Origin: a virus
Strand: one strand, 5' to 3'
Length of the DNA stretch: 64,000 bases
Virus record (IMG/VR): IMGVR_UViG_3300001202_000001
The first letter of the stretch is position 1. Each line of letters opens with the position of its first letter. The notes under the pieces are model-generated. The model had not been told where the DNA came from. It ran no database searches and worked only from the letters and a program-made list of their open reading frames with translations. This document shows, in pieces, positions 5,260 through 44,061 of the stretch. Made by a program: the position numbers and the translations under genes.

Positions 5260-5263
5260 GTAT

Positions 5264-14169: not shown

Positions 14170-14205
14170 AAGGGGTCTCCATAATTATGTTGATTGTAGT
14201 ATTAC

Positions 14206-14234: not shown

Positions 14235-14257
14235 TTTTACATACTTTTGAGGGAATT

Positions 14258-20157: not shown

Positions 20158-20222
20158 TAGAGTTACCTACTTATGTTGTTTTTAATACTTCAAGCCCTAT
20201 TTCATTGCAAGAATTATCTTCG

Positions 20223-31081: not shown

Positions 31082-31442
31082 AGGTTAGCACTAAAAGTGG
31101 GAAAGAAGGATTTTAGTTTACCTCCAACTCAGTTCACGATACTTTCATATCTGTTTAACCTGAGAGCCAGACTAAAACCACTACAGTTCGAACCTCAAAC
31201 ACTTGTTCGTTGGTTCAGAGAGCTATCTCATTAGCCTACCAGCATATCCCTCGCGAAAAGGATTATTAGCTGCATTTCCATGTCTCCCCGCTAAGGGCTA
31301 CATTTATGTCTTTACTACGGGTACAAAGGGTTGTCAACACCCAAAGTGAATTATTTGCGCGAAATGTATAGTAGGATGTGCGTGAGATGTACATTAGACA
31401 GGTGTTAGTGGCTGTTTTCTGCAAAACAGGCGTAAAAGGCTG

Positions 31443-31455
31443 TTGGGTATAAATC
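31443..31455 (+). promoter_or_regulatory. GTTGGGTATAAAT promoter-like motif (no recognisable -35)
   Basis: Same extended word as at 26501, 49988 and 53929. Located in the ORF-free region, about 340 nt upstream of ATG 31795. Confidence 0.35.
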
Positions 31456-31622
31456 AGCTTTTCGAAAAATTATAAACTACCGAGTGGCAACAGGTGTGGC
31501 GCTACACTACCACATACACCAATAAAGTGTGCTACCCTTCAACGCAATCCAAGTGAGAGTGGAAGTGTTAGTGGAACATAAGCAGAACATAACATTACGC
31601 ATTTGTAATAAATATATGCTTC

Positions 31623-31635
31623 TATTTATACCCAT
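31623..31635 (-). promoter_or_regulatory. ATGGGTATAAATA motif on the minus strand
   Basis: Reverse complement of TATTTATACCCAT. The only minus-strand copy of GGGTATAAA that I saw. Confidence 0.25.
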
Positions 31636-31654
31636 AATCATGCTAAGAATAGGT

Positions 31655-31741
31655 ATAGCCAAGGGGTTAGCCCTTGCTATCAAGCCTCACATATAGGGCT
31701 TGTGCTACACACTGTAGCAAGCGGATAAGTGTGTCTTATCC
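31655..31741 (+). other. Array of four abutting stem-loops
   Basis: H1 31655-31680 (10 bp plus a bulge), H2 31681-31702 (6 bp), H3 31703-31719 (7 bp), H4 31723-31741 (7 bp). All pairs were checked by hand. H4 contains TTATCCACT (31736-31744). Confidence 0.6.
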
Positions 31742-31752
31742 ACTAATCATAA

Positions 31753-31770
31753 TAGTCCTAGCTAGGACTA
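31753..31770. repeat. Palindrome family copy 1: TAGTCCTAGCTAGGACTA
   Basis: Perfect 18-nt palindrome, 24 nt upstream of ATG 31795. Confidence 0.9.
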
Positions 31771-31794
31771 AGACAAAAGAAAAGAGTTTTCACA

Positions 31795-32526
31795 ATGTCA
31801 AAAACAATTAAAGCAATCACAAGCCAAGCCGCTACCACATACGCAACGGATAACATCATTCCAGTATTAGAAGCCCTTGCAACCTTAGACGCTAGCACAC
31901 AAACACAAAACAAATTGCTAGCATACCACGTCTTTGAAACGTCCCTGCTAGCAGGTGATGAAAAGATTAACCATGCAATGATTGAAAAGTCTATTAACCG
32001 CACGTTTGACAAGCGCGTCACTAATAAGGGCTTGAAAGTTGCAACCTATGTTAAAGACGCTAAGCCAGCGGCCAATGGTGTTATATACACCGCTGAACAA
32101 TTCCAAGGCGATAACCCTGAATTGCATGTAATGACTGTATATGGCCATATTGCCGCCTATGAGACAGAGCAACGCAAAACAAAAACAGACACTAAGTCAG
32201 TTGTTGAACAAGCCCTTGCCGCTAGTGGTTTACCTATCGAATTAGCTGATAAGCAAATCAAGTTGGCACAAGATGGGAATGACGCCGCTATGTCTTTTGT
32301 TAAAAATGCGTCTGAAAAGTTTACCCCTGCACAAAAGGTTAGTGCTAGTGGTAGTGAAACACAAGCCACGCCGCAAGATACGCTAACAGCCGCGCTTGAT
32401 GTGCTAATTGACATGGTTACTAATGGCGATGCTACACAGGCTCACCAGTGGATTGAACAAGCGGGGGAGTTAATAGGTACTTGGACTGTTACAGAGCAAG
32501 AAACACCTATTGCACAAGCCGCATAG
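31795..32526 (+). CDS. Hypothetical protein
   Basis: 243 aa ORF with an ATG start. Its stop TAG overlaps palindrome copy 2. Confidence 0.7.
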   Translation: MSKTIKAITSQAATTYATDNIIPVLEALATLDASTQTQNKLLAYHVFETSLLAGDEKINHAMIEKSINRTFDKRVTNKGLKVATYVKDAKPAANGVIYTAEQFQGDNPELHVMTVYGHIAAYETEQRKTKTDTKSVVEQALAASGLPIELADKQIKLAQDGNDAAMSFVKNASEKFTPAQKVSASGSETQATPQDTLTAALDVLIDMVTNGDATQAHQWIEQAGELIGTWTVTEQETPIAQAA

Positions 32527-32540
32527 TCCTAACTAGGACT
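32525..32540. repeat. Palindrome family copy 2: AGTCCTAACTAGGACT
   Basis: 6-bp arms around AACT. Overlaps the stop codon at 32524-32526. Confidence 0.9.
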
Positions 32541-32554
32541 TTACGAAATACTAT

Positions 32555-32570
32555 CACGGCTTAGGCCGTG
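32555..32570 (+). other. Small hairpin CACGGC-TTAG-GCCGTG
   Basis: 6-bp stem and 4-nt loop, 29 nt after the stop of 31795..32526. No U-tract. Confidence 0.3.
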
Positions 32571-32669
32571 GTAGTGGAAGTCGCACTCTTCTACAGAGTG
32601 CCTCCCCAAACTCGCCCCTTAAAGAGCGCGACTTCCATAAATCCGCGACTTTTTCAGAAAGCTAGTATT

Positions 32670-32963
32670 ATGTTACCTTTTTCGACCCAAATCACACAGC
32701 CACAAGGCACGAATTACGTTGTGGAATTTCTGAACAAAAACCGCGACATTATTTTCAAATTTGAGACTGCGGATTGGTCTCTGGCAAAAAACCTTGAAGA
32801 AAACGCAATTATGCTTTTTTACAAGTGGCAAGAAGTTCGCGCTCTACAAACGTCCAATTCTGGCTGGCCTACTTTCGCAATACTCTGTGACGCGATGTAT
32901 TTCCCAACTCGCACAGGTGCTCATGCTGTTATCTATACGGAGATTGAAAATGCTTATCTCTGA
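32670..32963 (+). CDS. Hypothetical protein
   Basis: Start moved to the first ATG (MLPFSTQ...). The track start is a GTG inside the hairpin region. Weak RBS. Confidence 0.45.
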   Translation: MLPFSTQITQPQGTNYVVEFLNKNRDIIFKFETADWSLAKNLEENAIMLFYKWQEVRALQTSNSGWPTFAILCDAMYFPTRTGAHAVIYTEIENAYL

Positions 32964-33303
32964 CGCATTAGTCCTAGCTAGGACTCCTCAAGAATATAAG
33001 GCTGTGTTAGCGCACTCTGCTATCCATAAAACACTCGACCCAAAAGCTAGACTTGCATATCTGCGAGTGTTCCACTTCCACCCCCACCAACACCCTGACC
33101 TCGCGCAAGTCATATACGACGAGCATCCACTTGACCCACAGCATCCTTTTGCTCTAACACTTAGTAGGCGTCGTCGTGTTAGTCGTAGTGGAACACCAGT
33201 CGAAATTCCCTCGCTTGGGCCAATTCAAGATGTGCCGACAAGTGGCGAATGGGAAGGATTTGGCGATATTCGTATCATTGTGAGCAGATGCGTGAGGCGT
33301 TAG
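32950..33303 (+). CDS. Hypothetical His/Pro-rich protein
   Basis: Start moved to ATG 32950, 8 nt after GGAG (MLISDALVLARTPQEY...). Palindrome copy 3 begins 20 nt after the start. Confidence 0.5.
   Translation: MLISDALVLARTPQEYKAVLAHSAIHKTLDPKARLAYLRVFHFHPHQHPDLAQVIYDEHPLDPQHPFALTLSRRRRVSRSGTPVEIPSLGPIQDVPTSGEWEGFGDIRIIVSRCVRR
32970..32985. repeat. Palindrome family copy 3: AGTCCTAGCTAGGACT
   Basis: Perfect 16-nt palindrome inside codons 7-12 of 32950..33303. Confidence 0.9.
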
Positions 33304-33370
33304 TGGCCGTGGTAGTGTGAGTGAGGGCACAGTTTTGGTTAAAAGTGCGACATTCTGCCATACCATATGT

Positions 33371-33395
33371 TGTGTCTAAATGAAAAATAGACACA
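33371..33395 (+). other. Hairpin TGTGTCTA-N9-TAGACACA
   Basis: 8-bp perfect stem, 68 nt after the stop at 33303. No U-tract. Confidence 0.4.
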
Positions 33396-33712
33396 AGAGA
33401 CCACTTTCACAACCTTTGGGTGTAAATAAAAGTGTTTGACAACCTGACCACTGAAAACCGTTGTAAACCAATGGGTTAACTTGCAAAGACTCGTGAAAAT
33501 TGTTCATTTTACCCTAAATAAGTGTTGGATATATGTTTGTATATTTTTCTCTATTTCTAAGTAATGGAAAAAATAGTAATATATAGATTACAGTATTTTA
33601 TATAATATAGAAATCACTAGGGTCGTACCAACACTTTTAAATCGGCTAAGCTATTGAAATCATTGGCCCGAACCCAAATAACAAACACTTTTTGAAATGG
33701 AGTTTTATACCC

Positions 33713-33874
33713 ATGTCCGAAGCCCAAATTAAAATACTGTTAGAAAACAATGAGTTAGACTTACTCATAGTTTTACTAAAGAACGCATACGGCAGAGCAG
33801 TCTTAAATCCCAAGAAAGCCCAACGTATTTCACGCCTACTAAGTAAACTGTATCAACTCAAGAAAACAGGATAG
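33713..33874 (+). CDS. Small hypothetical protein
   Basis: MSEAQIKILLENNELDLL... from the first ATG. The track start 33692 is TTG. Confidence 0.45.
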   Translation: MSEAQIKILLENNELDLLIVLLKNAYGRAVLNPKKAQRISRLLSKLYQLKKTG

Positions 33875-33879
33875 TTCCA

Positions 33880-34473
33880 ATGAAACTTTCATTCCTTCTT
33901 TTATATCAAACTGAAACTGAACGTCACACCCAAGCTGTTTACGATGGTCGCACCTTACCTATTCAATGCACTAAGGCTAAGAACGGTGGTTATTTACTTC
34001 ACTTCTTTGGTGAATCATTCTCTCTTGAGTTAAAGGCTCTTTACTTCAAAGTGTGGCAACATCCTTCTCACAATGGAGTTACTGCCTACTTTGATACTCT
34101 CAAAGAATTAAGACAATGGTTGTCCGCAGAGTTAAACTTAATCTATGAGCCTGATGATATGCGTCGTGAAGCTGCTCACTTAGTTGGACGCACAAAGCTT
34201 AGGAAAGATGTAATCAACGCTCTTACAAAAGGTCTTAGACCTTTTGATAAGGATTTAGTGTCACTCTGTGAAATACGAACGGCCTTCAACTCACACCCTA
34301 AACGACTACTATCTGTACGCACACTTGGTGACATACTATACTCACAAGGAGGTAGGTCACTAGGACAGATTTGGACAGGTAAAAGCCGTTCAAGCCTATG
34401 GGCAATTAAGAATGTTGACTTTTGGCAGAACCAGACAGGTAGAGACGCAGGTGTCTACTACAAAAAGTCCTAA
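33880..34473 (+). CDS. Hypothetical protein
   Basis: 197 aa ORF. Its stop TAA lies inside palindrome copy 4. Confidence 0.65.
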   Translation: MKLSFLLLYQTETERHTQAVYDGRTLPIQCTKAKNGGYLLHFFGESFSLELKALYFKVWQHPSHNGVTAYFDTLKELRQWLSAELNLIYEPDDMRREAAHLVGRTKLRKDVINALTKGLRPFDKDLVSLCEIRTAFNSHPKRLLSVRTLGDILYSQGGRSLGQIWTGKSRSSLWAIKNVDFWQNQTGRDAGVYYKKS

Positions 34474-34481
34474 CTAGGACT
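34466..34481. repeat. Palindrome family copy 4: AGTCCTAACTAGGACT
   Basis: Overlaps the stop at 34471-34473 and lies 32 nt upstream of ATG 34514. Confidence 0.9.
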
Positions 34482-34513
34482 ACCACCCCTACTCTCACTC
34501 ACAGGAGCACGAC

Positions 34514-34918
34514 ATGTTAATTCACCTAAATACTCAAGAGAAGCTTGACGAGTTTGTGAACGACAACCGTGAGGCACTAATTGAATATTATTTGTCAACA
34601 AAAGAGGAAATTGGAAACGAAGAAGATTATTGGTTCTCTTACCCTATTCCTGCTGTAGACCCTCAATCTGTACAAGACCGCTTAGACCTTAACTTCTACG
34701 TTACAGATGATACCGAAGAGATGAGTTTAACAGCCTATGCTACCAAACTAACAGAAATAGGAACTCTGGAGATTGACACCTCAATTTACACTACAGTATT
34801 CTCTGCTTTAGTACACTGTCTTGAATGTGAACACATATTTCATAACATTGATACCTGTCCCTGTTGCGGGAATAATGACCCATTAAAAACTGTATATCTA
34901 CAATGGATACTAACATGA
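34514..34918 (+). CDS. Hypothetical protein with C-terminal zinc ribbon
   Basis: 134 aa. CLECEH...CPCCGNND at the C-terminus. Confidence 0.6.
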   Translation: MLIHLNTQEKLDEFVNDNREALIEYYLSTKEEIGNEEDYWFSYPIPAVDPQSVQDRLDLNFYVTDDTEEMSLTAYATKLTEIGTLEIDTSIYTTVFSALVHCLECEHIFHNIDTCPCCGNNDPLKTVYLQWILT

Positions 34919-35151
34919 CCTTCCAAACAAACCATGCTCTAGTCGAAGCCGCTGAAAATGCTATCGCCTTACAAGCAGAGCCACAACTACCAAAACTCTA
35001 CAAGGTAGCAATGGAAGAAATCCAGACTGTCACGATTGAGATAGCTGCGGACTCACCAGAGGATGCTTTAAAGCGTGTAGGCAAGGGCCAAGGAGAAATC
35101 CTTAGCACTTCATGGAAAAGCCGCCTACCTGAAACTGCGAGGATTGTGTAA
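34903..35151 (+). CDS. Hypothetical protein
   Basis: 82 aa ORF overlapping its neighbours. Alternative ATG at 34915. Confidence 0.5.
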   Translation: MDTNMTFQTNHALVEAAENAIALQAEPQLPKLYKVAMEEIQTVTIEIAADSPEDALKRVGKGQGEILSTSWKSRLPETARIV

Positions 35152-35447
35152 TGTCCTACGACATATTCTTCAACAACCGCACATTCAACATCACGTCGAA
35201 CATAACTCCCATGACCAAAGCCGCTGGCTTATACCTACCTGACCTACACGGACTAACAGGAGCACAAGCACAGCCACGTCTAGCCTCTTGCCTGATGTAT
35301 CTGACCAACTACAACAACTCACGCTCACTGCGTAAGCTAGAGCCTATCAATGGTTGGGGAACACTCGACCACACAATCACATTCTTAACCCGTCTATACT
35401 TCACCTTAAACGAAGACTTAGACCAAGTAATAGGAGTTCACTCGTGA
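35151..35447 (+). CDS. Hypothetical protein
   Basis: 98 aa ORF with an ATG in a TAATG overlap with the upstream stop. Confidence 0.6.
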   Translation: MSYDIFFNNRTFNITSNITPMTKAAGLYLPDLHGLTGAQAQPRLASCLMYLTNYNNSRSLRKLEPINGWGTLDHTITFLTRLYFTLNEDLDQVIGVHS

Positions 35448-35608
35448 GACACTTAACAGCAATAGTCCTACTAGGACTCTCACTATCAGCTTGTAAGCCT
35501 CTACCCTCATACACAATGAACGTAGAAGGGTATTGTGCTACAGCCTCACAACCACAAATCTGCAAACAATATGTGTCAGCATATGTAAACGGGAGACGAG
35601 CACCATGA
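35444..35608 (+). CDS. Small lipoprotein
   Basis: GTG start 7 nt after AGGAG, overlapping the upstream stop (GTGA). VRHLTAIVLLGLSLSAC has a lipobox LSAC. The mature part (about 37 aa) has 3 further Cys. Confidence 0.55.
   Translation: MRHLTAIVLLGLSLSACKPLPSYTMNVEGYCATASQPQICKQYVSAYVNGRRAP
35464..35478. repeat. Palindrome family copy 5: AGTCCTACTAGGACT
   Basis: 15-nt version that begins 20 nt after the GTG start of the lipoprotein gene. Confidence 0.85.
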
Positions 35609-35889
35609 AACTCAACGACACAGAAATCGAACTAATCGGACAAGACCCTGAAACTATCAAGGAAGCCCTTAACAAAGAGTTCCCAACTCGCGAGTCACTA
35701 ATTGGCTCAAGCATCACAGCTTATGGAGACGAGTTTGTCATGTTGGAGCAGAACCTCGGTATGCAGTGGATTTACTTCTTTATGAAGTTGATGGACACAG
35801 ATACCACAGGACTTGCAGCCACACTAGGTACGGATGAAACTTCACCACGTCGCAACATTCGCTGGACTTTTGAAGAGGGAACAAACTAA
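35605..35889 (+). CDS. Hypothetical protein
   Basis: Start moved to the ATG in an ATGA overlap with the lipoprotein stop (MKLNDTEIELIG...). Confidence 0.55.
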   Translation: MKLNDTEIELIGQDPETIKEALNKEFPTRESLIGSSITAYGDEFVMLEQNLGMQWIYFFMKLMDTDTTGLAATLGTDETSPRRNIRWTFEEGTN

Positions 35890-36479
35890 TGCCAACAGGA
35901 TATACAGCATCCGTACAAGACGGAACAATAACAACTCTACAAGAATATGCCCTTAGTTGTGCCAGAGCATTTGGTGCAACTATCACAATGAGGGATGAAC
36001 CTGCTGATGCAGTAATTCCTGACGAGTTCGAACCTTCACCCTATCACAAAGATGCAATCGTAACAGCTAAGGCTAAGATTGATGCTTGGTTTGATATGAC
36101 AGATTTGCAGCGAGACGAAGCCTATGGTGAGTATTGTTTGCAAGTCACGAAAGACTATGAAGCTACGATTGAAAAAGCTCAAGGCTATCGTGATAATTAT
36201 GAGGCTATGTTAGAAAAGGTTGAAGCTTGGGAAGCACCTACGGCTGACCATACTAACTTCCGAGACTTCATGCTAAAGCAATTACGGGAGTCAATCGACT
36301 TTGACTGCTCCACAACTCACACTAAGTCTACACCAATGACTAAGGATGATTGGGTTACAGAACAAGAACGCAGCTTAGCTTGGTCATTAAACTACCACCA
36401 AGAGAATTGGGCAGACGAACAGAAGCGCTGTCGTGAACGCTCTAAGTGGGTTAATGACTTACGTGATAGCCTCACTTAG
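35889..36479 (+). CDS. Hypothetical protein
   Basis: 196 aa ORF, TAATG-coupled to the upstream gene. Confidence 0.65.
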   Translation: MPTGYTASVQDGTITTLQEYALSCARAFGATITMRDEPADAVIPDEFEPSPYHKDAIVTAKAKIDAWFDMTDLQRDEAYGEYCLQVTKDYEATIEKAQGYRDNYEAMLEKVEAWEAPTADHTNFRDFMLKQLRESIDFDCSTTHTKSTPMTKDDWVTEQERSLAWSLNYHQENWADEQKRCRERSKWVNDLRDSLT

Positions 36480-36481
36480 TT

Positions 36482-36781
36482 ATGAAAACCCTGCTATTCA
36501 GGAATAACACTTTCACTCACCATATTGGCTTTCAAGCTGAAAACAACGAAACCTACGGTGAGTTGAAAGTGAAAACTCGTGAGCAAGCTGAAATATATTT
36601 CAAAAAGTACGCAGCGATTTATTGCCTTGACCCAATTCTACCATTTGCCCATAAAGATTTACTAGGAGCAGGTGGCTTAGGTAAGAAAGACGATAGACCT
36701 GCTTATGTTTGCTGGACAGCAACATTCAGAATGATGGAGAGAATAAATGACGAAACAAGATATATTCGCCCTAGCCTGTGA
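36482..36781 (+). CDS. Hypothetical protein
   Basis: 99 aa ORF, 2 nt after the upstream stop. Confidence 0.55.
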   Translation: MKTLLFRNNTFTHHIGFQAENNETYGELKVKTREQAEIYFKKYAAIYCLDPILPFAHKDLLGAGGLGKKDDRPAYVCWTATFRMMERINDETRYIRPSL

Positions 36782-37196
36782 CCTCGCGGCAGAGTACCAC
36801 GAGGGCCAGCAATACCACGAAGATGGAAACGGCTACTACCTCGACCACTTACTGCCAGTAGCCACATCAGCTACTCGTTTCGCACAACCTTGGCTCCATC
36901 CACTCGATGTTCAAACTGTGGGAGTTCTACACGACATTCTCGAAGATACAGAGTGTACAGCAGATGTTTTACTCGATAAGGGTATTCCAGCTTATCTGGT
37001 GGAAGCCGTGATTCTACTGACAAAATCTTCGACAACAAATCGTCGGGACTACATTACCAACTTAATGCTAAACCCCTTATCCCACTGCGTGAAAATCGCA
37101 GACTCCCACTTCAACCTCACCCAGTCACTGATTGAACGCAACTATCGCCGCGTCAAGAAGTACACTGAAAACCTCACATGGATGATGATACAATGA
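36747..37196 (+). CDS. HD-domain (p)ppGpp hydrolase-like protein (RelA/SpoT hydrolase fold)
   Basis: 149 aa. H in YYLDHLLPVA and HD..ED in GVLHDILEDTECT. No synthetase domain. Confidence 0.7.
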   Translation: MTKQDIFALACDLAAEYHEGQQYHEDGNGYYLDHLLPVATSATRFAQPWLHPLDVQTVGVLHDILEDTECTADVLLDKGIPAYLVEAVILLTKSSTTNRRDYITNLMLNPLSHCVKIADSHFNLTQSLIERNYRRVKKYTENLTWMMIQ

Positions 37197-37477
37197 AACT
37201 CGCACTAACACTAGCACTCACACTCACAGCCACTCTTGCACTAGGTGGGTGTGGCGAGACAACTGAACTTAAGTTCCCTCGTGAGCACAGAGCTAGTTAC
37301 ACTTGCTCAATCGACCAGTGGGAAATGGTAAAGAAACGTATTAACGTCTGTGAGCAGTCTGGATTAAAGAGAAGTTGCCCAAATTATGCCATACGTGCAG
37401 AGTGCACCTATAAAGGAGACCTGATTGATGATAACAGTAACTCTAACCAAGAAGAAACCACGACCACACCCAATTAG
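37193..37477 (+). CDS. Lipoprotein
   Basis: Start moved to the ATG in an ATGA overlap with the HD gene stop. MKLALTLALTLTATLALGGC has a lipobox LGGC. The mature part has 4 further Cys. Confidence 0.6.
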   Translation: MKLALTLALTLTATLALGGCGETTELKFPREHRASYTCSIDQWEMVKKRINVCEQSGLKRSCPNYAIRAECTYKGDLIDDNSNSNQEETTTTPN

Positions 37478-37601
37478 CTTCGCATTATTTCAACTAGAAG
37501 ATGATGCAAGACCCGATATGGTAGCTGTAGTTGTAGAGATAGGTTACCCTATCATTCCAAATCCAGCCGCAAACAATCACAAACGCCAGTTTGCAGCTTG
37601 A
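37428..37601 (+). CDS. Possible small ORF (57 aa), not in track
   Basis: ATG 9 nt after AAGGAG. MITVTLTKKKPRPHPISFALFQLEDD... Overlaps the lipoprotein 3' end by 50 nt in another frame. Confidence 0.3.
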   Translation: MITVTLTKKKPRPHPISFALFQLEDDARPDMVAVVVEIGYPIIPNPAANNHKRQFAA

Positions 37602-37603
37602 CA

Positions 37604-37619
37604 AGTCTTAACTAGGACT
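37604..37619. repeat. Palindrome family copy 6: AGTCTTAACTAGGACT
   Basis: One arm mismatch. 29 nt upstream of ATG 37649. Confidence 0.8.
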
Positions 37620-37648
37620 TTAATACCCAAATTAACAAGGAAAACATT

Positions 37649-38230
37649 ATGACCAAAACTTACACTGTGGGTGAAATCCCAAAGAACAGACCATTCCGAG
37701 TTAAAGGCTCTGATATTGAACTTATCAAAACTCCTGATGGAGTTATGGCGAACACAACAGAGGGACTATCAATCATTGACATTGCTATACTAATGCGCGT
37801 CAACGACGAGACCGAAACTGACTCAATTCGCCCGATTTATACTATCGACCCTACCACAATCGTCGCCTCATTCCAGAATAACTTCCTGATGGACACTGGA
37901 GACGGTTATACGCTCGAAACATTCACCCCTGATGGTGAAGTTCACTTCGCACGATACTTTAGACCTCAAAACCTACATCGCGCTGTAGCGGCTTTACAGG
38001 AGCTTATGCCAGAGCAAATTCCACATTGGGCTAACACCCATATCACCCGACCCAATGGGTCACAGCAATACACAGCGTCTGATGTGTATAATGCTATTCG
38101 CGACACGTTCTTTATTGGTTATGACGGAGCCTTAAACTCTGTTGAATACATGGAACGTGTTTTAGCAGACGATGGATGGGTCTTCAATGACCTCACACAG
38201 GAGCAAACACTAACATCAAACGGAGACTAA
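37649..38230 (+). CDS. Hypothetical protein
   Basis: 193 aa ORF with AAGGAAAA upstream. Confidence 0.65.
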   Translation: MTKTYTVGEIPKNRPFRVKGSDIELIKTPDGVMANTTEGLSIIDIAILMRVNDETETDSIRPIYTIDPTTIVASFQNNFLMDTGDGYTLETFTPDGEVHFARYFRPQNLHRAVAALQELMPEQIPHWANTHITRPNGSQQYTASDVYNAIRDTFFIGYDGALNSVEYMERVLADDGWVFNDLTQEQTLTSNGD

Positions 38231-38231
38231 T

Positions 38232-38441
38232 ATGTCACAAACTACAACACAAACAAGTTCTGGAGGCATTGGCGTTCTAGGACTACTAGGAGTTCTATTC
38301 GTAGGACTTAAACTCGGCGGCGTAATCGACTGGTCTTGGTGGTATGTCACCATGCCCTTCTGGATTGGCTTCGCTATCCTCGCAGCAATTCTAGGCATCA
38401 TTGGTGTAATCTGGTTGTTCGCAACTATCTTAGGACGTTAA
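38232..38441 (+). CDS. Small membrane protein (2 predicted TM helices)
   Basis: 69 aa. GIGVLGLLGVLFVGLKLGG and MPFWIGFAILAAILGIIGVIWLFATIL. Confidence 0.6.
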   Translation: MSQTTTQTSSGGIGVLGLLGVLFVGLKLGGVIDWSWWYVTMPFWIGFAILAAILGIIGVIWLFATILGR

Positions 38442-38953
38442 CTCTTCAACCTAATATAACCAGAATAATCTGCATCCAAGTACCTAACTAAGGTTCTTCT
38501 AGGAATGCCAGATTTGAACGAACAGTCAGAGATAGACTCATAGAGTTTACCTCTGACTAACACTGGAATATATTTAGCTTTGGATAGATTGATTCTATGG
38601 ACATTTGAAAATTTAATACCTCTCCTAACCATGCTCATTTTAGCCTTTGAGTTATTACTATGGAGTCTACCTCCTAAACCTCCAGAAGAGAGATTGTAAC
38701 ACATTGGGTTTGAACTATCGACTAAGAGAGCTTCATACTCAAAAGCATCCTCCCTAGTATTAAACTCTCTCAAAACTTGTCGCTTAAAGCTGTCTCGACC
38801 ATATTTACGAATAGCTGCTTTCAAGGCGACTCCGCTACCCAAGTAGCGACAAGGATTACATTTACAGGAGTGAACTCCGATGTAATATTTACCATTGACT
38901 AGGTTAGTGGTTTTATATACTAAATGTTTCATGCTGATTGTCTCCTGTGACAT
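38438..38953 (-). CDS. GIY-YIG homing endonuclease (free-standing)
   Basis: 171 aa. VYKTTNLVNGKYYIGVH ... YLGSG ... R..E motifs. Opposite strand to all its neighbours. Confidence 0.8.
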   Translation of the reverse strand: MSQETISMKHLVYKTTNLVNGKYYIGVHSCKCNPCRYLGSGVALKAAIRKYGRDSFKRQVLREFNTREDAFEYEALLVDSSNPMCYNLSSGGLGGRLHSNNSKAKMSMVRRGIKFSNVHRINLSKAKYIPVLVRGKLYESISDCSFKSGIPRRTLVRYLDADYSGYIRLKS

Positions 38954-39021
38954 TAGTGTGGGTGGACTCTGCTAAGTCGCGACCTACAAACATTATCAAC
39001 AAAACAGAAGGAAAGTCAATT

Positions 39022-39165
39022 ATGGCCTACAACAAGCAAAGAGCCGAGTGTTTCAAGAAGCGTTCACTACATGACCTAGAACGTATTCGCGATAGTGGGT
39101 CACTTTCAGCGGCGGCTGCTCAATACGAAATTGACAGACGCAACCGTACCAACAACAAAAAGTAG
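39022..39165 (+). CDS. Small hypothetical protein
   Basis: Start moved to ATG 39022 after GAAGGAAAG. The upstream part of the track ORF overlaps the GIY-YIG gene start. Confidence 0.4.
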   Translation: MAYNKQRAECFKKRSLHDLERIRDSGSLSAAAAQYEIDRRNRTNNKK

Positions 39166-39174
39166 GAGGTAATC

Positions 39175-39468
39175 ATGTCTAAACTAAACTGCGCCAACTG
39201 TGGAGAAGTTTTTGTTTATATGCTCGATTGCCCCACAGAAATACTTCACTACGAGGATAACTCGGAGGGCTTCTGCTGTGAAGACTGTATGCACCAATAC
39301 TTCGACATGGAAGAATGTGCATATTGTGAAGAAACTCACGTCTGCGAACATTACGATGAACGTGAAACTTATGAAGGCAGAACTTGTAGTCAAGACTGTC
39401 ATGAGGAAGCCATGTACTTATGGGGCCAAAACCACGGCGACCCTAACTACGAACACAGGACGTACTAA
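39175..39468 (+). CDS. Acidic Cys/His-rich (zinc-binding-like) protein
   Basis: 97 aa with 11 Cys including CANC and CCEDC. Many Asp/Glu/His. GGAGG RBS. Its stop is 1 nt before the macro domain start. Confidence 0.6.
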   Translation: MSKLNCANCGEVFVYMLDCPTEILHYEDNSEGFCCEDCMHQYFDMEECAYCEETHVCEHYDERETYEGRTCSQDCHEEAMYLWGQNHGDPNYEHRTY

Positions 39469-39469
39469 G

Positions 39470-40015
39470 ATGAAAATTCAAATCATAAAAGGCGACATAA
39501 CACGGGTTGAAGCTGATGTAGTTGTAAACGCTGCTAACAACCTTCTGCGTAATGGTGCAGGAGTATGTGGTGCAGTTCACAAAGCTGCTGGCCCTGAACT
39601 TGAAGAATGGTGTAACCACTTCATGCGTAATCGCAATGAGATAGAGATTGGAACAGTTCCAATTTCACCTTCCTTCAACATGGAAAACTGCTCACACATA
39701 GCTCATACAGTCGGCCCCATCTATCAAAACTGGCATGACCTGAACGAGGCTTTACTAGAAGCGGCCTACCACTCAACATTTATCGCAGCTTCCAAGATGG
39801 GTGCAACATCTATAGCGTTCCCTTGTATCTCAACAGGCATCTATGGTTACCCACCTGAAAAAGCCGTGAAGGTAGTTAGACAAGCTCTACTAGATACAGG
39901 CTTTAAAGGGTCAGTAAAACTTGTATGTTTTTCTGACAGTGACTACGCCCTATATAAGAAGGTAATTAAACCTTTTTCCTTAAAGATTTCAAAGACTTAC
40001 AGAAAGTTCTTATGA
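39470..40015 (+). CDS. Macro domain protein (ADP-ribose binding/hydrolase fold)
   Basis: Start moved to ATG 39470. IIKGDITRVEADVVVNAANNLLRNGAGVCGAVHKAAG ... AFPCISTGIYGYP are canonical macrodomain motifs. Confidence 0.85.
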   Translation: MKIQIIKGDITRVEADVVVNAANNLLRNGAGVCGAVHKAAGPELEEWCNHFMRNRNEIEIGTVPISPSFNMENCSHIAHTVGPIYQNWHDLNEALLEAAYHSTFIAASKMGATSIAFPCISTGIYGYPPEKAVKVVRQALLDTGFKGSVKLVCFSDSDYALYKKVIKPFSLKISKTYRKFL

Positions 40016-40599
40016 TTATTTCAGAGCAAAAATTCATCCAATATCTAGCACTCATGGGCGCAATGTTTATGGTGATAGGTTTTGCAAGTGGACGCTGGAC
40101 AGCAGCGCCAGAAATTAAAACAGAGTATGTTACAAAAACTCGGACAGAAGTTAAAATTGTCCGACAATTCGTAACAAGCAATGTTGAACGAGAATGCCTA
40201 GCACAAGCGATATATTCCGAATCTCGGTCAGAGTCCCAGCTAGGACAATTAGCCGTTGGTTCCGTTATTATGAACAGAGTTAGCGATAACCGATACCCTG
40301 ACACAATCTGCGGTGTGGTAGAATATAAGAATAAGGGAGTTTATCACTTTTCTTACCAATACAGAAAAGACCCTAACTTTTACCATACAGCCAGAGTATT
40401 TGCAAACATGCAGGTCTCTGCTATTGAGTTAGAAGCTAGGGAGAAAGCATATGAAGTGGCTGATAAGATTTTGGATGGTGAGCGTAATTTGCCAGAAACT
40501 TCTCTCAATTACCATAGCACTGCTGTCTCACCTGATTGGGCAAAAGACCTCACTTTTTATAAACAGATAGGGTTACACAAATATTACACAGGATTTTGA
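40012..40599 (+). CDS. SleB/Hydrolase_2-type cell wall hydrolase with N-terminal signal-anchor (SAR-like endolysin)
   Basis: 195 aa. N-terminal TM YLALMGAMFMVIGFASG. CLAQAIYSESRSESQLGQLAVGSVIMNRV...YPDTICGVV motif. Confidence 0.8.
   Translation: MIISEQKFIQYLALMGAMFMVIGFASGRWTAAPEIKTEYVTKTRTEVKIVRQFVTSNVERECLAQAIYSESRSESQLGQLAVGSVIMNRVSDNRYPDTICGVVEYKNKGVYHFSYQYRKDPNFYHTARVFANMQVSAIELEAREKAYEVADKILDGERNLPETSLNYHSTAVSPDWAKDLTFYKQIGLHKYYTGF
40232..40247. repeat. Degenerate palindrome-family copy: AGTCCCAGCTAGGACA
   Basis: Two mismatches to the consensus, inside the endolysin gene. Confidence 0.4.
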
Positions 40600-40600
40600 T

Positions 40601-40852
40601 ATGAAATCAATTATACATGTAAACCGACAACACATTGCAATGAACGCGAAGGACAACGGTAATCGTCCTGTCTACACAATTAAGCGAGGCGGTAAAACTA
40701 TCTATGCTCGTGAAGTAGAAATACTCGGCCCTTCAAAGCTAATTTACAATGGTTCACAGTTAAATTGTGGCGCACGAGCTTGGATTGAAACCAACGCAGA
40801 ACTCAACCTAATAGATGAAATGACTTTTAAGGAGGCTAGAAATGCCAGCTAG
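40601..40852 (+). CDS. Hypothetical protein
   Basis: 83 aa ORF, 1 nt after the endolysin stop. Confidence 0.6.
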   Translation: MKSIIHVNRQHIAMNAKDNGNRPVYTIKRGGKTIYAREVEILGPSKLIYNGSQLNCGARAWIETNAELNLIDEMTFKEARNAS

Positions 40853-41003
40853 AATGAACACACCTTCACGAATAGAATTAACCTTCCATGCAGCACTGAC
40901 TGGTTTTTGCAGTGATGAAACAATGTCAGTTGACAGAGTTATAGAATATGCTCAACAAATAACAAAAGCAGTACATGGTGAGGAATACACAGGTAAAAAC
41001 TAA
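40842..41003 (+). CDS. Small ORF (53 aa), not in track
   Basis: ATG 6 nt after AAGGAGG. MPARMNTPSRIELTFHAALTGFCSDETMSVDRVIEYAQQITKAVHGEEYTGKN. Confidence 0.45.
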   Translation: MPARMNTPSRIELTFHAALTGFCSDETMSVDRVIEYAQQITKAVHGEEYTGKN

Positions 41004-41053
41004 ATTAGTTGTTGACAGCCACATATAATCCAGAGTAAGACGTGCAAATCAAT

Positions 41054-41130
41054 TCCCTACGGCCCCGACTGGCATGGGGGAAGCACTGTTAATGCTTTCG
41101 TTCTTGGTTCGAGTCCAAGGTAGGGAGCCA
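41054..41130 (+). tRNA. tRNA-Asn (GUU), CCA encoded
   Basis: Acceptor TCCCTAC/GTAGGGA. D stem CCCC/GGGG. Anticodon arm AAGCA-CTGTTAA-TGCTT. T arm CTTGG-TTCGAGT-CCAAG. G at position 8 is unusual. Confidence 0.8.
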
Positions 41131-41150
41131 AACAAAATGGAGAATATATT

Positions 41151-41258
41151 GTGAGCAACGCAATGACAAAACGAAATACAAAAGCTCACTTCCATAAGGG
41201 AGTGTTCTCCCGTGCCTGTATCAACCACCTATCACTAAACCCCCAACCGACTCTGTAA
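41151..41258 (+). CDS. Possible 35-aa basic peptide between tRNAs
   Basis: GTG 8 nt after GGAG. VSNAMTKRNTKAHFHKGVFSRACINHLSLNPQPTL. Could equally be non-coding spacer. Confidence 0.25.
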   Translation: MSNAMTKRNTKAHFHKGVFSRACINHLSLNPQPTL

Positions 41259-41263
41259 ATATA

Positions 41264-41338
41264 CAGGGACGAAGAGGCTGGGTCATCGCTATGCTTTGGA
41301 AGCACTGAAGTCGGGTTCGATTCCCGAGTTCCTGACCA
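41264..41338 (+). tRNA. tRNA-like element with UGG (Pro) loop; possibly a degenerate or pseudo-tRNA
   Basis: Good acceptor CAGGGAC/GTTCCTG, T arm TCGGG-TTCGATT-CCCGA and CCA. The anticodon stem pairs only 3 bp around TTTGGAA and the D stem only 2 bp. Confidence 0.35.
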
Positions 41339-41339
41339 A

Positions 41340-41414
41340 TGCGGCGTAGTTTAGTGGTAAAACGTCGGAATTTGACTCCGAAGAGCGCTGGTTCGAATCC
41401 AGCCGCCGCATCCA
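41340..41414 (+). tRNA. tRNA-Gln (UUG), CCA encoded
   Basis: Acceptor TGCGGCG/CGCCGCA. D arm GTTT-AGTGGTA-AAAC. Anticodon arm TCGGA-ATTTGAC-TCCGA. T arm GCTGG-TTCGAAT-CCAGC. Confidence 0.85.
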
Positions 41415-41435
41415 AAATGTCAAAACAGAATCTAA

Positions 41436-41511
41436 TCTAGGTAAAGTAGAATGGTTGACACGCTTGCTTGTGACGCAAGAGCATGAGGTTCGAATCCTCT
41501 ACCTAGTACCA
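41436..41511 (+). tRNA. tRNA-His (GUG)-like, atypical
   Basis: Perfect anticodon arm CTTGC-TTGTGAC-GCAAG and T loop TTCGAAT. There are U.U mismatches at 1:72 and 49:65, and the D stem pairs only about 2 bp. Confidence 0.5.
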
Positions 41512-41516
41512 AATAA

Positions 41517-41606
41517 GGACTCGTGAACCGAGTGGTCGAAGGTATCGGACTTTTAATCCGACGAGGTTTATCCTCCGCGTGGGTTCAAATCCCACCGAGT
41601 CCTCCA
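41517..41606 (+). tRNA. Class II (long variable arm) tRNA with UUU anticodon
   Basis: Acceptor GGACTCG/CGAGTCC (7 bp). Ser/Tyr-like D arm ACC-GAGTGGTCGAA-GGT. Anticodon arm TCGGA-CTTTTAA-TCCGA. 17-nt variable arm with GAGG/CCTC stem. T arm GTGGG-TTCAAAT-CCCAC. U73 then CCA. Confidence 0.7.
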
Positions 41607-41683
41607 AAAATGCAAGGCGGCTGTCCCACGCAGTAGGTAAGTCTTAGGGGTGACACTAAGATGGAATATAGGGACACACTTAT

Positions 41684-41759
41684 AGTACGGTGGCCGAGGT
41701 AGTTTAGGTGCTGGATTGCAAATCCAGTTACGTGGGTGCAACTCCCACTCGTACTTCCA
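41684..41759 (+). tRNA. tRNA-Cys (GCA), CCA encoded
   Basis: Acceptor AGTACGG/TCGTACT (one G.U). Anticodon arm CTGGA-TTGCAAA-TCCAG. T arm GTGGG-TGCAACT-CCCAC, where G at position 55 is unusual. Confidence 0.7.
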
Positions 41760-41788
41760 CTAACACTAACACAAAGAAAGGACTAACA

Positions 41789-42025
41789 ATGACAGAAATA
41801 ACAGGACGCCTTGAGCGCTGGACAGTAGGAGCTACATTCACCGCCACTAATGAATATATAATTTGGGGAGACTGCTATGAAGACTCCCGCAATCGTTTCC
41901 CTGATAGTACGCCTATTCATACATCGGGAATACTCCTATCAGATTACCCTATTGACGAACTCAAAGAAGGTATGATAGTGAAAACACGCAACTCAACTTA
42001 TCTGTTGGGTAAAACCATTCGGTAA
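41789..42025 (+). CDS. Hypothetical protein
   Basis: Start moved to ATG 41789 (MTEITGRLERW...) because the track start lies inside tRNA-Cys. Confidence 0.55.
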   Translation: MTEITGRLERWTVGATFTATNEYIIWGDCYEDSRNRFPDSTPIHTSGILLSDYPIDELKEGMIVKTRNSTYLLGKTIR

Positions 42026-42040
42026 CACAGGAGAAGAAGA

Positions 42041-42397
42041 ATGAAAACTATCACAAAAATTAAAATGCGTCGGTTCATCAACCGCCGTTCAAATGGAGTA
42101 GTTGAGCAGCTAGAAAAGCTAGTAGCTAAACTACAAACTTGGATTGCCAAGCTAGACGCAGAGCAAGACGCCGCTAACCAAGCTATGAAGCAAGAAATTG
42201 CAGCTATCAAGAATGGTGCAGAAACAGAAGTTGAACGCCTAGAATATTTGATTGCAGAAGCTAAGGCAAATGCTATCGATGCAGAAGCTGCGGTTACTGA
42301 TGAATACACAGCAATCATCAATGAAGCCAAAGGTGAAGCTGAACGTGCTCGTCAAGTTGAGCATAACATGAAAACACTCGTTGGAAGTCCTACTTAG
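42041..42397 (+). CDS. Hypothetical coiled-coil protein
   Basis: 118 aa with a GGAGAAG RBS. Its stop TAG lies inside palindrome copy 7. Confidence 0.6.
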   Translation: MKTITKIKMRRFINRRSNGVVEQLEKLVAKLQTWIAKLDAEQDAANQAMKQEIAAIKNGAETEVERLEYLIAEAKANAIDAEAAVTDEYTAIINEAKGEAERARQVEHNMKTLVGSPT

Positions 42398-42401
42398 GAC
42401 T
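42386..42401. repeat. Palindrome family copy 7: AGTCCTACTTAGGACT
   Basis: 6-bp arms. Overlaps the stop at 42395-42397 and lies 9 nt upstream of the tRNA-like element. Confidence 0.85.
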
Positions 42402-43255: not shown

Positions 43256-43760
43256 AGAATTAGAGAGAATGTTTAATCGTCTGCAAGTCAGCGACGAATA
43301 TACTTTTCCTGAATTTATTCTTGGTGAACTCAATCACCTTAATTGGGAATTGAAAGTCCCCGTTAGGGAAACCATGCGTAGACGTGGGGTAACCTACCAG
43401 AGAGTTAGGCATCGCCCTAGATTAAAGTACAAAGGCAAAACTGATTACTTGAACAGACAGTTATTCAGACACTTTATGTCAGATGATATTGAAGGGAAAA
43501 AACTAATCCCTAACGGTTCAAGGCAGGACTATAACCCACACCACTGGCGAGTAGGTGCGGAGGAAGTGAAGAAACCAGTGTCCGTGCAAACAACTCCGAC
43601 TGTAATTGACCCCGAAGTTTATCAACTCGTTGAAGAACTGAAAAGACGGGAAAATGCTGGAGAAGATGTTTGGCAGGGTGTAGACGAAATGTTTACAGAA
43701 TTGGAAATCGCTCAAGCCAAAGAGATTATGAATGACGAAATCAGAGAGAACGAAGCTTAA
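43239..43760 (+). CDS. Hypothetical protein
   Basis: 173 aa ORF. Confidence 0.6.
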   Translation: MMGVAKELERMFNRLQVSDEYTFPEFILGELNHLNWELKVPVRETMRRRGVTYQRVRHRPRLKYKGKTDYLNRQLFRHFMSDDIEGKKLIPNGSRQDYNPHHWRVGAEEVKKPVSVQTTPTVIDPEVYQLVEELKRRENAGEDVWQGVDEMFTELEIAQAKEIMNDEIRENEA

Positions 43761-44061
43761 AAGAGCTTGGGTAACCAAACTCAAACAAACTTTAGGCTGT
43801 GCTGTATGTGGTATTGGGGTTCCCGAAGCACTACAGTTCCACCATCTTGAAGACCACGTTAAAGAAAAATCAATCTCTAGGCTGTTATCCAATAGTGCTG
43901 GACTACCAAAAATAATGGTTGAAATTGAAAAATGTAGTTGCTTGTGTAGCAATCATCATTTAATGCTGCATAGTGAGAAATACAAGATGCCAAAATTGAA
44001 ACCAATTATTGTACCTAAGTTCATGAAGGACTTAGCTAAAAAGCAGGGAATTTTAAAATGA
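43732..44061 (+). CDS. HNH endonuclease
   Basis: 109 aa. CAVCG...LQFHHLEDH...CLCSNHHLMLH (Cys pairs plus an HNH His/Asn/His pattern). Confidence 0.7.
   Translation: MTKSERTKLKRAWVTKLKQTLGCAVCGIGVPEALQFHHLEDHVKEKSISRLLSNSAGLPKIMVEIEKCSCLCSNHHLMLHSEKYKMPKLKPIIVPKFMKDLAKKQGILK

Follow-up and report, generated by a model that had tools for sequence, protein, structure and literature searches.

A dispersed 16-bp palindrome at gene boundaries in the early accessory arm of an uncultured siphovirus-type phage and its counterparts in sister lineages

Introduction

Dispersed invariant dyads have been noted in a few phage groups, and even in the best-described case, the Cluster O mycobacteriophages (Corndog and relatives), their function is unknown (PMC4351075). 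These phages carry a 17-bp dyad, TGTTCGG-NNN-CCGAACA, for which the authors inferred a dimeric DNA-binding protein from the same kind of evidence as is presented below (PMC4351075). Here, we describe a family of 16-bp palindromes in an uncultured siphovirus-type phage, represented by a stretch of 64,000 nucleotides (hereafter the window) of the IMG/VR virus record IMGVR_UViG_3300001202_000001, which corresponds to positions 13513-77512 of an 81.6-kb contig. The palindrome family is real and under selection, and its copies are located at gene boundaries. The patterns reported here point to a sequence-specific 16-bp dyad site, most likely for a homodimeric phage-encoded regulator of early accessory cassettes, whose binding we infer and to which we give about even credence.

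The Cluster O repeats are the closest precedent, by analogy and not by homology. Both elements consist of invariant 7-bp inverted arms around a short variable centre, both occur in many intergenic copies concentrated in the non-structural arm, and both are uninvolved in the indels that distinguish relatives. The Cluster O site is absent from the host, and the window 16-mer is absent as a bacterial repeat, being multi-copy only in related IMG/VR contigs. Cluster O phages, like the window and Achromobacter phage JWF, also have a small DNA-binding gene reversed inside the structural operon (PMC4351075). In contrast, the sequences are unrelated (no homology to TGTTCGGNNNCCGAACA), the phage group and the host are different, and the centre has 2 bp instead of the 3 bp of Cluster O. 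More than 30 copies are distributed genome-wide in Cluster O, about a third of them in open reading frames (ORFs), whereas the window group has 7-8 copies in ~11 kb, all at gene junctions. Also unlike Cluster O, the window element has built-in stop codons that restrict its placement, and sister lineages carry different dyads.

A previous description of the window made from its letters alone (hereafter the sequence-only reading) did not recognise the element from any described phage system. Close descriptive precedents do exist (PMC4351075, PMC2839356, PMC4122927, PMC9283540, PMC13551039), and the phenomenon is not categorically new; the palindrome strings of the window and of the sister lineages were not found in the literature searched. 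Added here are a family with all copies at cassette boundaries, an internal control that separates sequence constraint from structure constraint, and evidence from one phage group in which six lineages or more have dyads of their own at the same kind of position, together with a conserved protein with two helix-turn-helix (HTH) domains. This comparative pattern makes the function of such repeats directly testable, including by specificity swaps between lineages.

The palindrome family and its placement

The pattern AGTCYT-N3-4-AGGACT has exactly seven matches in the window, at 31754, 32525, 32970, 34466, 35464, 37604 and 42386 (copies 1 to 7, Table 1). In 100 dinucleotide-preserving shuffles the mean was 0.06 matches, and 13 strand-matches were reached in none. 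Pattern search and shuffles thus bear out the seven copies of the sequence-only reading as a real repeat family, and the enrichment against shuffled genomes that it had proposed to measure is far above the chance level (7 against 0.06). Its statement that the family is absent from the structural arm and the replication block also holds, with zero copies at 5-26.5 kb and at 44-64 kb and no further match elsewhere in the 64 kb. The half-site hexamers alone occur at about expectation elsewhere (24 and 23 against 14-15.5 expected, those within the copies counted).

The consensus is a 7+2+7 dyad, AGTCCTA-RY-TAGGACT, that is, 16 bp with 7-bp arms and a 2-bp centre, and the centres occurring in the family are GC, AC, GT, AT or CT. 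Exceptions in the window are copy 5, which has a 1-bp centre (7+1+7), and copy 6, with a C>T change in its left arm. In the window's lineage the copies share no sequence beyond the 16 bp and form no longer element, unlike those of Pseudoalteromonas phage KB12-38, and a de novo scan of the window found no second family of short perfect hairpins. When up to two mismatches were allowed, eight matches were obtained against 2.85 expected by chance, with 40232 and 49089 added. The site at 40232-40247, listed by the sequence-only reading as a degenerate eighth copy, has two mismatches, which is chance level; it is probably fortuitous and was not retained in the family.

Six of the seven copies start between -16 and +20 nt from the end of a stop codon, an interval for which 8.3% of the positions in the region qualify (binomial P=2e-6), and the remaining one (copy 1) closes a non-coding stretch of ~700 bp that precedes the first accessory gene. 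The association with stop codons is partly built in, because, on either strand, two of the three frames through the palindrome contain TAG or TAA; the frame left open translates as V-L-(A/L)-(R/G)-(T/L). An ORF that enters the palindrome must therefore either end or use the single open frame. Three copies terminate the entering ORF, and the two in-ORF copies (3 and 5) both use the open frame. Both of the latter are at junctions of overlapping or abutting genes, and no copy is found deep inside an ORF. All copies are in co-directionally transcribed DNA, and the junctions that bear them divide blocks of tightly packed or overlapping genes.

The sequence-only reading had described the copies as locked to start and stop codons. 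The positions are correct: the stops at 32524-26, 34471-73 and 42395-97 lie in or against a palindrome, and the ATGs at 31795, 34514 and 37649 follow a copy at a spacing of 25-32 nt. The word "locked" is too strong in view of the built-in TAG/TAA. Copies 3 and 5 do begin 20 nt downstream of the start codons 32950 and 35444, an offset that reflects the single open frame at these two junctions and that is 17 nt in the relative L085.

Table 1 Palindrome copies and associated features of the window, with the dyads of sister lineages
Feature	Position or copy number	Strand	Context
Copy 1, TAGTCCTAGCTAGGACTA, 18-bp perfect dyad	31753..31770		ATG 31795 of the first accessory gene lies 25 nt 3'
Copy 2, AGTCCTAACTAGGACT	32525..32540		Overlaps the TAG stop of gene 31795-32526
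Copy 3, AGTCCTAGCTAGGACT	32970..32985		Begins 7 nt after the TGA of 32670-32963
Copy 4, AGTCCTAACTAGGACT	34466..34481		TAA stop of 33880-34473 at its centre
Copy 5, AGTCCTACTAGGACT, 15-mer with 1-nt centre	35464..35478		Begins 17 nt after the TGA of 35151-35447
Copy 6, AGTCTTAACTAGGACT	37604..37619		Begins 3 nt after the TGA of 37425-37601; next ATG 37649
Copy 7, AGTCCTACTTAGGACT, extending to GAAGTCCTACTTAGGACTTC	42386..42401		Contains the TAG stop of 42041-42397
Degenerate "eighth copy", AGTCCCAGCTAGGACA	40232..40247		Within the cell-wall hydrolase gene 40012-40599; 2 mismatches
Promoter-like frame around copy 6	37598..37626	+	TTGACA 37598-37603, 17-nt spacer consisting of the palindrome and one T, TAATAC 37621-37626
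Four covarying hairpins, putative structured leader or small RNA	31660..31741	+	Directly 5' of copy 1 and the first accessory gene
Double-HTH candidate reader, 126 aa	50286..50663	+	HTH_28 residues 10-44, HTH_3 residues 68-107
Ribbon-helix-helix (CopG/Arc-like) alternative candidate, 62 aa	14258..14446	+	Opposes the structural operon; CopG_antitoxin E=7.6e-5, below the Pfam cut-off
KB12-38 dyad, CGGGGTAACGTTACCCCG	10 copies		Stands 5' of an AT-rich tail and a ribosome-binding site, which are conserved
JWF dyad, GGTTCGT-N-ACGAACC	10 unique copies		Mostly 13-25 nt 5' of ATG; also in the terminal repeat
Seuss dyad, TTTACCT-S-AGGTAAA	5 unique copies		Overlaps the Shine-Dalgarno site
L102 (IMG/VR) dyad, GTGCAG-N2-3-CTGCAC	9 copies		Near stops and ribosome-binding sites; A-rich and T-rich flanks
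L105 (IMG/VR) dyad, TTTAAC-N1-2-GTTAAA	8 copies		Near stop, Shine-Dalgarno or start codons

Conservation in relatives

Relatives of the window phage were obtained from IMG/VR, ENA and Logan assemblies. A scan of the collection with AGTCCTANNTAGGACT retrieved two IMG/VR contigs with multiple copies and ~70 unrelated singletons, and more distant relatives were found via homologues of the gene between copies 1 and 2 (48-65% protein identity). Across six genomes, the window and five relatives, both 7-bp arms are identical in ~34 copies, and the flanking proteins are 48-65% identical. Orthologous sites can differ in their 2-bp centre (GC, AC, GT, AT), and the flanks have diverged. Both AC and GT are found on the sense strand, including at sites that are orthologous to each other, so that the centre offers no usable asymmetry for judging strand bias. 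Single-mismatch variants of the arms are rare, some being G.U-compatible in the sense RNA (37604; L082 19400) and others incompatible (L083 5245; L082 13100). The complete 80.6-kb genome of one close relative contains eight copies, all in ~12 kb of the same arm. As to the conservation in related phages that the sequence-only reading had left to be checked, the arms are kept and, in this complete genome, the copies are confined to one region.

Bacterial genomes lack such a family. In a set of 185,579 bacterial and archaeal species, each represented by one genome, the commonest 16-mer occurs as 7 singletons only, and a REP-like host repeat or a site of a host regulon is therefore unlikely, provided that the phage's host is among those genomes.

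The hairpins directly 5' of copy 1 (31660-31741) serve as an internal control. Seven of their pairs have changed on both sides, with a covariation score of 0.287 against 0.146 in shuffled alignments, and 0/500 shuffles reached 0.287. None of the six palindrome pairs varies in that alignment; the contrast comes from five sequences only, within this one alignment. Since the adjacent hairpins covary while the palindrome pairs never change, the sequence, and not the pairing only, is constrained, and by this comparison the conservation of the palindrome is sequence-level and not structure-level. The covariation suggests that the hairpins themselves form a structured leader or a small RNA; no Rfam family matches them.

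The individual copies are preserved in diverse settings. At copy 1, the orthologues in L078, L080/L083, L085 and L082 have identical arms with GC or GT as centre. At copy 2, the centre is GC in L078, L080, L083 and L082 and AC in L085; the protein encoded between these two copies (31795-32526) has merely 54-65% identity across relatives. Copy 3 makes up codons 7-12 (L-V-L-A-R-T) of the overlapping gene 32950-33303, as part of its conserved N-terminus, and is kept in five of five relatives, in L085 within the same open frame 17 nt after the ATG. Copy 4 is followed by a CA-rich leader, an AGGAG Shine-Dalgarno and the ATG at 34514, and together with this leader it forms a ~50-nt conserved island between non-homologous flanking genes in L078 and L082. 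Copy 5 encodes I-V-L-L-G-L within the lipoprotein signal peptide of 35444-35608; at L078 7745 an identical 15-mer is present and the signal peptide is joined to a different mature protein. Copy 6, in which the C>T change keeps the pairing as G.U in the + strand RNA, has AGTCCT in its L078, L082 and L083 orthologues, and copy 7 has an identical counterpart in a relative (L039 4674 / L078 15411).

Two side observations concern the surroundings of these copies. The genes 35444-35608 and L078 7725-7973 encode unrelated small lipoproteins whose common part is the signal-peptide DNA (MxHLTAIVLLGLSLSAC), a 50-bp homology island that includes the 15-mer. A second motif, GTG-[GT]TAGTGG-[AC], occurs five to six times on the + strand (31405, 31568, 32571, 33185, 33300), in or beside the non-coding stretches 31100-31790 and 33304-33710; relatives retain it 3' of copy 2, and it may represent an iteron or part of a promoter.

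Counterpart dyads in sister lineages

De novo scans revealed that five further lineages, namely KB12-38, JWF, Caulobacter phage Seuss and two IMG/VR contigs (L102 and L105), each have their own 13-18-bp dyad (Table 1). In all six lineages the families, of 5-10 copies, are located in the arm 3' of the primase gene, beside stop codons or Shine-Dalgarno sites, and the shuffled expectation is <=0.06 copies for any of them. The predicted hairpin energies differ widely, from 0.0 kcal/mol in L105 (a 64% GC genome) through -1.3 to -2.5 kcal/mol for the JWF 13-mer and -1.9 (13-mer) or -2.8 kcal/mol (15-mer) in Seuss to -8.3 (16-mer) and -10.7 kcal/mol (18-mer) in KB12-38. Complementarity reaches to within 1-2 nt of the centre in every family but that of L102, the centres of which are variable and non-complementary; it thus takes in positions that would stay unpaired in an RNA loop. 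The families have dyad symmetry in common but not RNA stability, which points to recognition of the DNA duplex by a symmetric dimer. In view of the terminator-like dyads of KB12-38 and L102, the substitute hairpins of KB12-38 and the centre length, which varies by 1 nt within three lineages, the lineages may not all use their dyads alike.

In KB12-38 (L086/L089), a ~55-nt intergenic cassette is repeated twelve times at 34-77 kb and consists of a hairpin, TTAATTAAACTAAAAC and GGATTGAca-ATG, the GGATTGA-ATG part being present in 11. The hairpin is the dyad CGGGGTAACGTTACCCCG in seven of the twelve and another GC-rich hairpin in four, a PeSL-like cassette in a temperate siphovirus. Second types of dyad were seen in L102 (ACTATC-N-GATAGT, five copies within 540 bp at 13002-13538) and in L106 (ATGATA-N-TATCAT, four copies in regulatory gaps at 9169 and 15057-15399). 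Both look like classical operator clusters, unlike the dispersed families.

A putative dimeric regulator of the early arm

In the proposed model, in which the identity of the regulator, its binding and its effect on expression are all predicted, the sites stand at boundaries between blocks of packed early accessory genes, and the regulator, once accumulated, would bind all copies and thereby shut down or partition early-arm transcription. At copy 6, it would occupy the spacer of the promoter-like TTGACA-N17-TAATAC, and at the remaining copies it would form a roadblock, placed between the stop codon of one cistron and the next ribosome-binding site. The transcribed palindrome can fold as a 6-bp tetraloop hairpin, and the regulator may also bind the mRNA beside the ribosome-binding site in the manner of Aca2 and Aca1. 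The candidate for the reader is the double-HTH protein 50286-50663.

This protein was the sole HTH protein detected in a Pfam scan of 70 ORFs, which covered all non-structural ORFs and some small ORFs of the structural arm. Its gene adjoins a KTSC gene and is syntenic with PJWF_00066 of JWF and gp77 of Seuss, both of which have the same two-HTH layout. The recognition helices LTEQSVR and MSHFRL are invariant in the window's lineage (60-100% identity) and different in JWF and Seuss, whose dyads are different as well. In an AlphaFold2 (AF2) model with a pLDDT of 80, the C-terminal half resembles dimeric XRE regulators (ClgR, controller C proteins of restriction-modification systems, SinR and HipB), at weak Foldseek E-values of 0.014-0.09. 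Regulators of this kind recognise inverted repeats. These features make 50286-50663 the best candidate reader and are consistent with co-evolution of protein and dyad, the link between the two being predicted. An alternative candidate is the ribbon-helix-helix (RHH) protein 14258-14446; at the corresponding, equally unusual place JWF carries an Arc-like gene. It is less apt as the reader because its own upstream region (in the stretch 14200-14446) carries a different direct repeat, AGTATTACTT, twice. With tblastn, neither the HTH nor the RHH protein gave a match across lineages, and the orthologues were placed by synteny plus Pfam. The first early gene (31795-32526), which has copies on both sides, was also considered as a possible regulator; its AF2 model (pLDDT 75) had no meaningful match in the PDB.

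Described repeat and operator systems resemble the element in part. The L5 stoperators (gp71 sites of Cluster A), at which the bound repressor blocks elongation (PMC9283540, PMC6550527), and the 22-bp repeats of T1 and Stevie (PMC4319613) likewise comprise many copies of one short site, mostly intergenic, near stops or starts, within transcribed operons and not at promoters. In these systems the site is asymmetric, follows the direction of transcription and is recognised by a repressor monomer, whereas the window element is a perfect dyad; L5 moreover has an immunity repressor, and neither an immunity repressor nor an integrase was seen among 70 scanned ORFs of the window. Aca HTH or RHH dimers bind short inverted repeats and thereby dampen early counter-defence genes with strong expression; in addition, hairpins of the 5' untranslated region are bound by Aca2 and Aca1, and some Aca proteins reach neighbouring anti-defence operons (PMC13551039). 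Dual DNA and RNA binding of the Aca type would reconcile the mixed DNA and RNA signals of the window element. In contrast, Aca genes sit in the operon that they control, with the repeats overlapping its promoter, whereas in the window the HTH gene is 8 kb off, the RHH gene is in the structural arm and the seven sites are dispersed along 11 kb. No member of the known acr or aca families was recognised.

Several observations weigh against a dimeric regulator. The link between protein and site draws on synteny and lineage correlation, so that binding is predicted only, and the correlation of helices and dyads could arise by shared phylogeny alone. The candidate HTH gene is situated 8 kb 3' of the last copy and has no palindrome nearby. 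A promoter-like context exists at one of the seven copies only, copy 6, and a consensus scan of the window found no promoter enrichment (29 sites against 29.9 expected) and no promoter adjoining the other copies. The length of the centre varies by 1 nt within lineages (15-/16-mer in the window, N2/N3 in L102, N1/N2 in L105), a change that many dimeric HTH proteins tolerate poorly and a hairpin tolerates easily. Arm variants that keep a G.U pair on the sense strand occur in the window (37604), L082 (19400) and JWF (76940, 79165), and the outermost pair covaries in JWF (G-C to A-T) and in KB12-38, which favours base-pairing. Finally, the dyads of KB12-38 and L102 resemble terminator or attenuator hairpins with a U-rich tail, and in KB12-38 other hairpins replace the dyad 5' of the same conserved tail.

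A consistent promoter context for the family is thus ruled out, and the frame at copy 6 stands by itself. Its -10-like hexamer TAATAC lacks the usual final T, and the frame is not listed by the consensus promoter scan. The ~50-nt block TTGACA-palindrome-TTAATACCCAAA..TAACAAGGA is invariant in the window, L078, L082 and L083; around it, the upstream DNA differs in L082 and the downstream gene differs in L078 and L082.

If the regulator model holds, it would explain a single temporal switch over fast-evolving early and counter-defence gene sets and provide compact orthogonal operator-repressor pairs for engineering. A wider extension of it, which we consider rather unlikely, is an "address code" of ~80-kb siphoviruses (JWF, Seuss, KB12-38 and the window lineage), in which each lineage would use its own 13-18-bp dyad at the boundaries of early accessory or counter-defence cassettes, read by a co-evolving double-HTH regulator both as duplex DNA, in the role of operator or roadblock, and as RNA hairpin beside the ribosome-binding site. 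A single protein would in this case silence the early arm as a whole, a new gene landing behind a dyad would automatically gain the correct temporal control, and, owing to the different dyads, each regulator would during co-infection act on no genome but its own.

Alternative explanations

A possible, if somewhat unlikely, alternative is a protein-independent RNA hairpin in the polycistronic early mRNA, with a 6-bp stem and a tetraloop, that acts in cis. It might shield the upstream cistron's 3' end from exonucleases, attenuate or pause transcription or insulate the translation of adjoining cistrons, as a weak cousin of the PeSL stem-loop. The predicted stem (-6.3 kcal/mol) forms with a probability >0.8 in 26 of 30 sense-strand contexts; the probability on the antisense strand is about equally high, which counts against a role in the mRNA. 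The copies are co-directionally transcribed and lie just after a stop codon, as expected of such a hairpin, but three of the seven hold or touch the upstream stop, where terminating ribosomes would melt the stem. The variable loop length (3-4 nt), the G.U-compatible arm variants on the sense strand and the covariation of the outer pairs in JWF and KB12-38 are in favour of pairing. Against these stand 0 compensatory changes in the six core pairs of ~34 copies, though adjacent hairpins covary, and the "loop" positions A7 and T10, which are conserved and complementary; such positions are unable to pair in an RNA tetraloop, and their complementarity is expected for the duplex site of a symmetric dimer. 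Sister lineages provide evidence of both kinds. The KB12-38 dyad is interchangeable with other GC-rich hairpins before the conserved AT-rich tail and ribosome-binding site, and the L102 dyads, with A-rich and T-rich flanks, are terminator-like, whereas the analogues of L105, Seuss and JWF are, at the energies given above, too weak for structural hairpins.

The PeSL cassettes of T4-like myoviruses (PMC2839356, PMC4122927) are the corresponding precedent, and their stem-loops have experimental support (PMC2839356). Like the window palindromes, they are short stem-loop elements between small orphan genes of a hyperplastic early region and form islands of element homology between unrelated genes. 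The KB12-38 family fits them closely (GGGG...CCCC stem, AT-rich tail, ribosome-binding site, ~10 repeats), and they are its closest functional analogue. In contrast, only the 16-bp palindrome is shared among the window copies, six of the seven have no sigma-70 promoter, the stem is weak and has no U-tract, and breakpoints are not enriched in comparison with other gene junctions. If the hairpin model were true, PeSL-type cassettes would be extended from T4-like myoviruses to siphoviruses.

Two specific forms of an RNA signal were rejected. The sequence-only reading was right that the copies are no classic intrinsic terminators: the sequences 3' of the copies are not T-rich, no T-run follows any of them, and a terminator scan lists copies on the minus strand only, where a few T happen to follow. 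A Rho-independent terminator is ruled out in the absence of a U-tract. The stem comprises 6-9 bp and pairing stops at the flanks, where ~7/21 flanking pairs are complementary, near chance. RNase III requires roughly two helical turns, a stem of ~20 bp; the palindrome is far too short to be its processing site, and the suggestion of RNA processing via this enzyme is implausible with a 6-bp stem. Hairpin-forming sequences also occur between the early cistrons of T7; unlike the T7 terminators and RNase III sites, the window element has no U-tract, a 6-bp stem and conservation at the level of sequence. No Rfam 15 family matches any copy at the gathering threshold in the whole window, and none does so at E<=1 in 31-34 kb (copies 1-3).

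Of the two readings offered in the sequence-only reading, operator of a dimer and RNA hairpin, both survive. The evidence leans to sequence-specific protein recognition because the arms are invariant while adjacent hairpins covary, complementarity enters the loop and some sister dyads cannot fold as RNA.

A PeSL-type role as a linker for recombination or as a mobile cassette with regulatory function is improbable; in this reading palindrome and leader would provide microhomology for swaps of accessory genes between co-infecting phages and conservation would reflect repeated exchange instead of regulation. The region is mosaic between close relatives, ~50-nt islands are found between non-homologous genes (34466/L078 5730; 37604/L078 9530/L082 15603), and extra copies lie beside lineage-specific genes (L078 7353; L082 10828, 16999). 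Over four genomes, breakpoints are 2.3-fold enriched at <=70 nt from a copy compared with random positions (40/200 against ~8.7%). A breakpoint is nevertheless present at 13 of 42 palindrome junctions and at 90 of 239 other gene junctions (Fisher P=0.49, a test that is weak in both directions since the breakpoint counts are non-independent). Because palindrome junctions break no more often than others, the enrichment is attributed to gene boundaries generally, and a PeSL-type recombination hot spot is not supported. In addition, 16 bp are short for homologous recombination, and the orthologous copies are fixed in position across 48-65% protein identity, which argues for purifying selection on each site.

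A selfish or neutral dispersed repeat with no phage function, either a miniature palindromic element or the target of a homing endonuclease, is highly improbable. In its favour, GIY-YIG and HNH genes do occur in the same region, the former as a presence/absence polymorphism, and an element that carries stops in two frames would be restricted to the ends of genes when it inserts. Against it, the Pfam scan of 70 ORFs detected neither a transposase nor a RAYT-like gene, and the copies have neither target-site duplications nor element ends beyond the 16 bp. A homing endonuclease normally has one target, located in a conserved gene. Orthologous sites have kept their arms across deep divergence and between flanks that have extensively changed, and independent lineages each keep a different dyad at the same kind of position. 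A ParB/parS system, an integrase or recombinase site and the promoter hairpin of an N4-type phage RNA polymerase were discarded, as the scan of 70 ORFs contained no such proteins.

Genome context

The TerL of the window phage has 37-43% identity to those of JWF, KB12-38 and Seuss, and no near-identical DNA was found in 50,697 GenBank phage records. KB12-38, a distant relative, encodes an integrase; neither an integrase nor a CI-like repressor was detected in the Pfam scan of 70 ORFs or among the called genes in ~4 kb to the right of the window, ~13.5 kb to its left being outside the scan. The leftward structural arm encodes a GpA-type TerL, portal and capsid genes and a 1662-aa ORF. At window 1-5300 (minus strand), a frame open for >1766 codons runs off the left edge and encodes a giant tail or host-recognition protein. 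Stop-codon recoding, considered for the ORF-poor first 5 kb, is ruled out by this single giant ORF leaving the window edge.

The rightward arm opens with a PrimPol/D5 primase gene (26995-29469), which is followed by ~12 kb of small genes, mostly without assigned function, and a cluster of six tRNA genes. Within this accessory arm, the tRNA cluster lies at 41054-41759 (+; Asn, Pro, Gln, His, Lys, Cys); L078 has insertions to either side of parts of it. Homing endonuclease genes are free-standing, with a GIY-YIG gene at 38438-38953 (minus) and an HNH gene at 43732-44061 (+); the GIY-YIG gene is absent from the 97%-identical L078, where a different 305-bp segment sits. Next comes a block of replication and nucleotide-metabolism genes (rIIA/rIIB-like, SNF2 helicase, RNA ligase, PolA, RecU, SbcCD-like and ThyA). 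It includes, at 44943-48085, 53983-54963 and 59179-60751 (+), rIIA/rIIB-like genes and an RNA-repair-like set. The former have HATPase_c_3, are labelled rIIA/rIIB in the Seuss annotation and correspond to PF26926 in relatives; the latter consists of an RNA ligase, an Rv2179c-like 3'-5' exoribonuclease, a metallophosphatase and an AAA_33 kinase-like domain.

The non-coding stretch ahead of the first accessory gene contains, at 31095-31302 (minus), a full-length match to the Rfam manA RNA motif (RF01745) with 39.1 bits, below the gathering threshold of 55.2 (E=6.8e-8 in a 3-kb search). It coincides with a 234-bp segment (31097-31330) missing from the close relative L078. In the same arm of L082, genes for a Prs-like phosphoribosyltransferase and NAMPT (18759-20750) adjoin a Macro-domain gene; we take this pair to suggest counter-defence by NAD+ salvage, which would fit anti-defence cargo in the arm.

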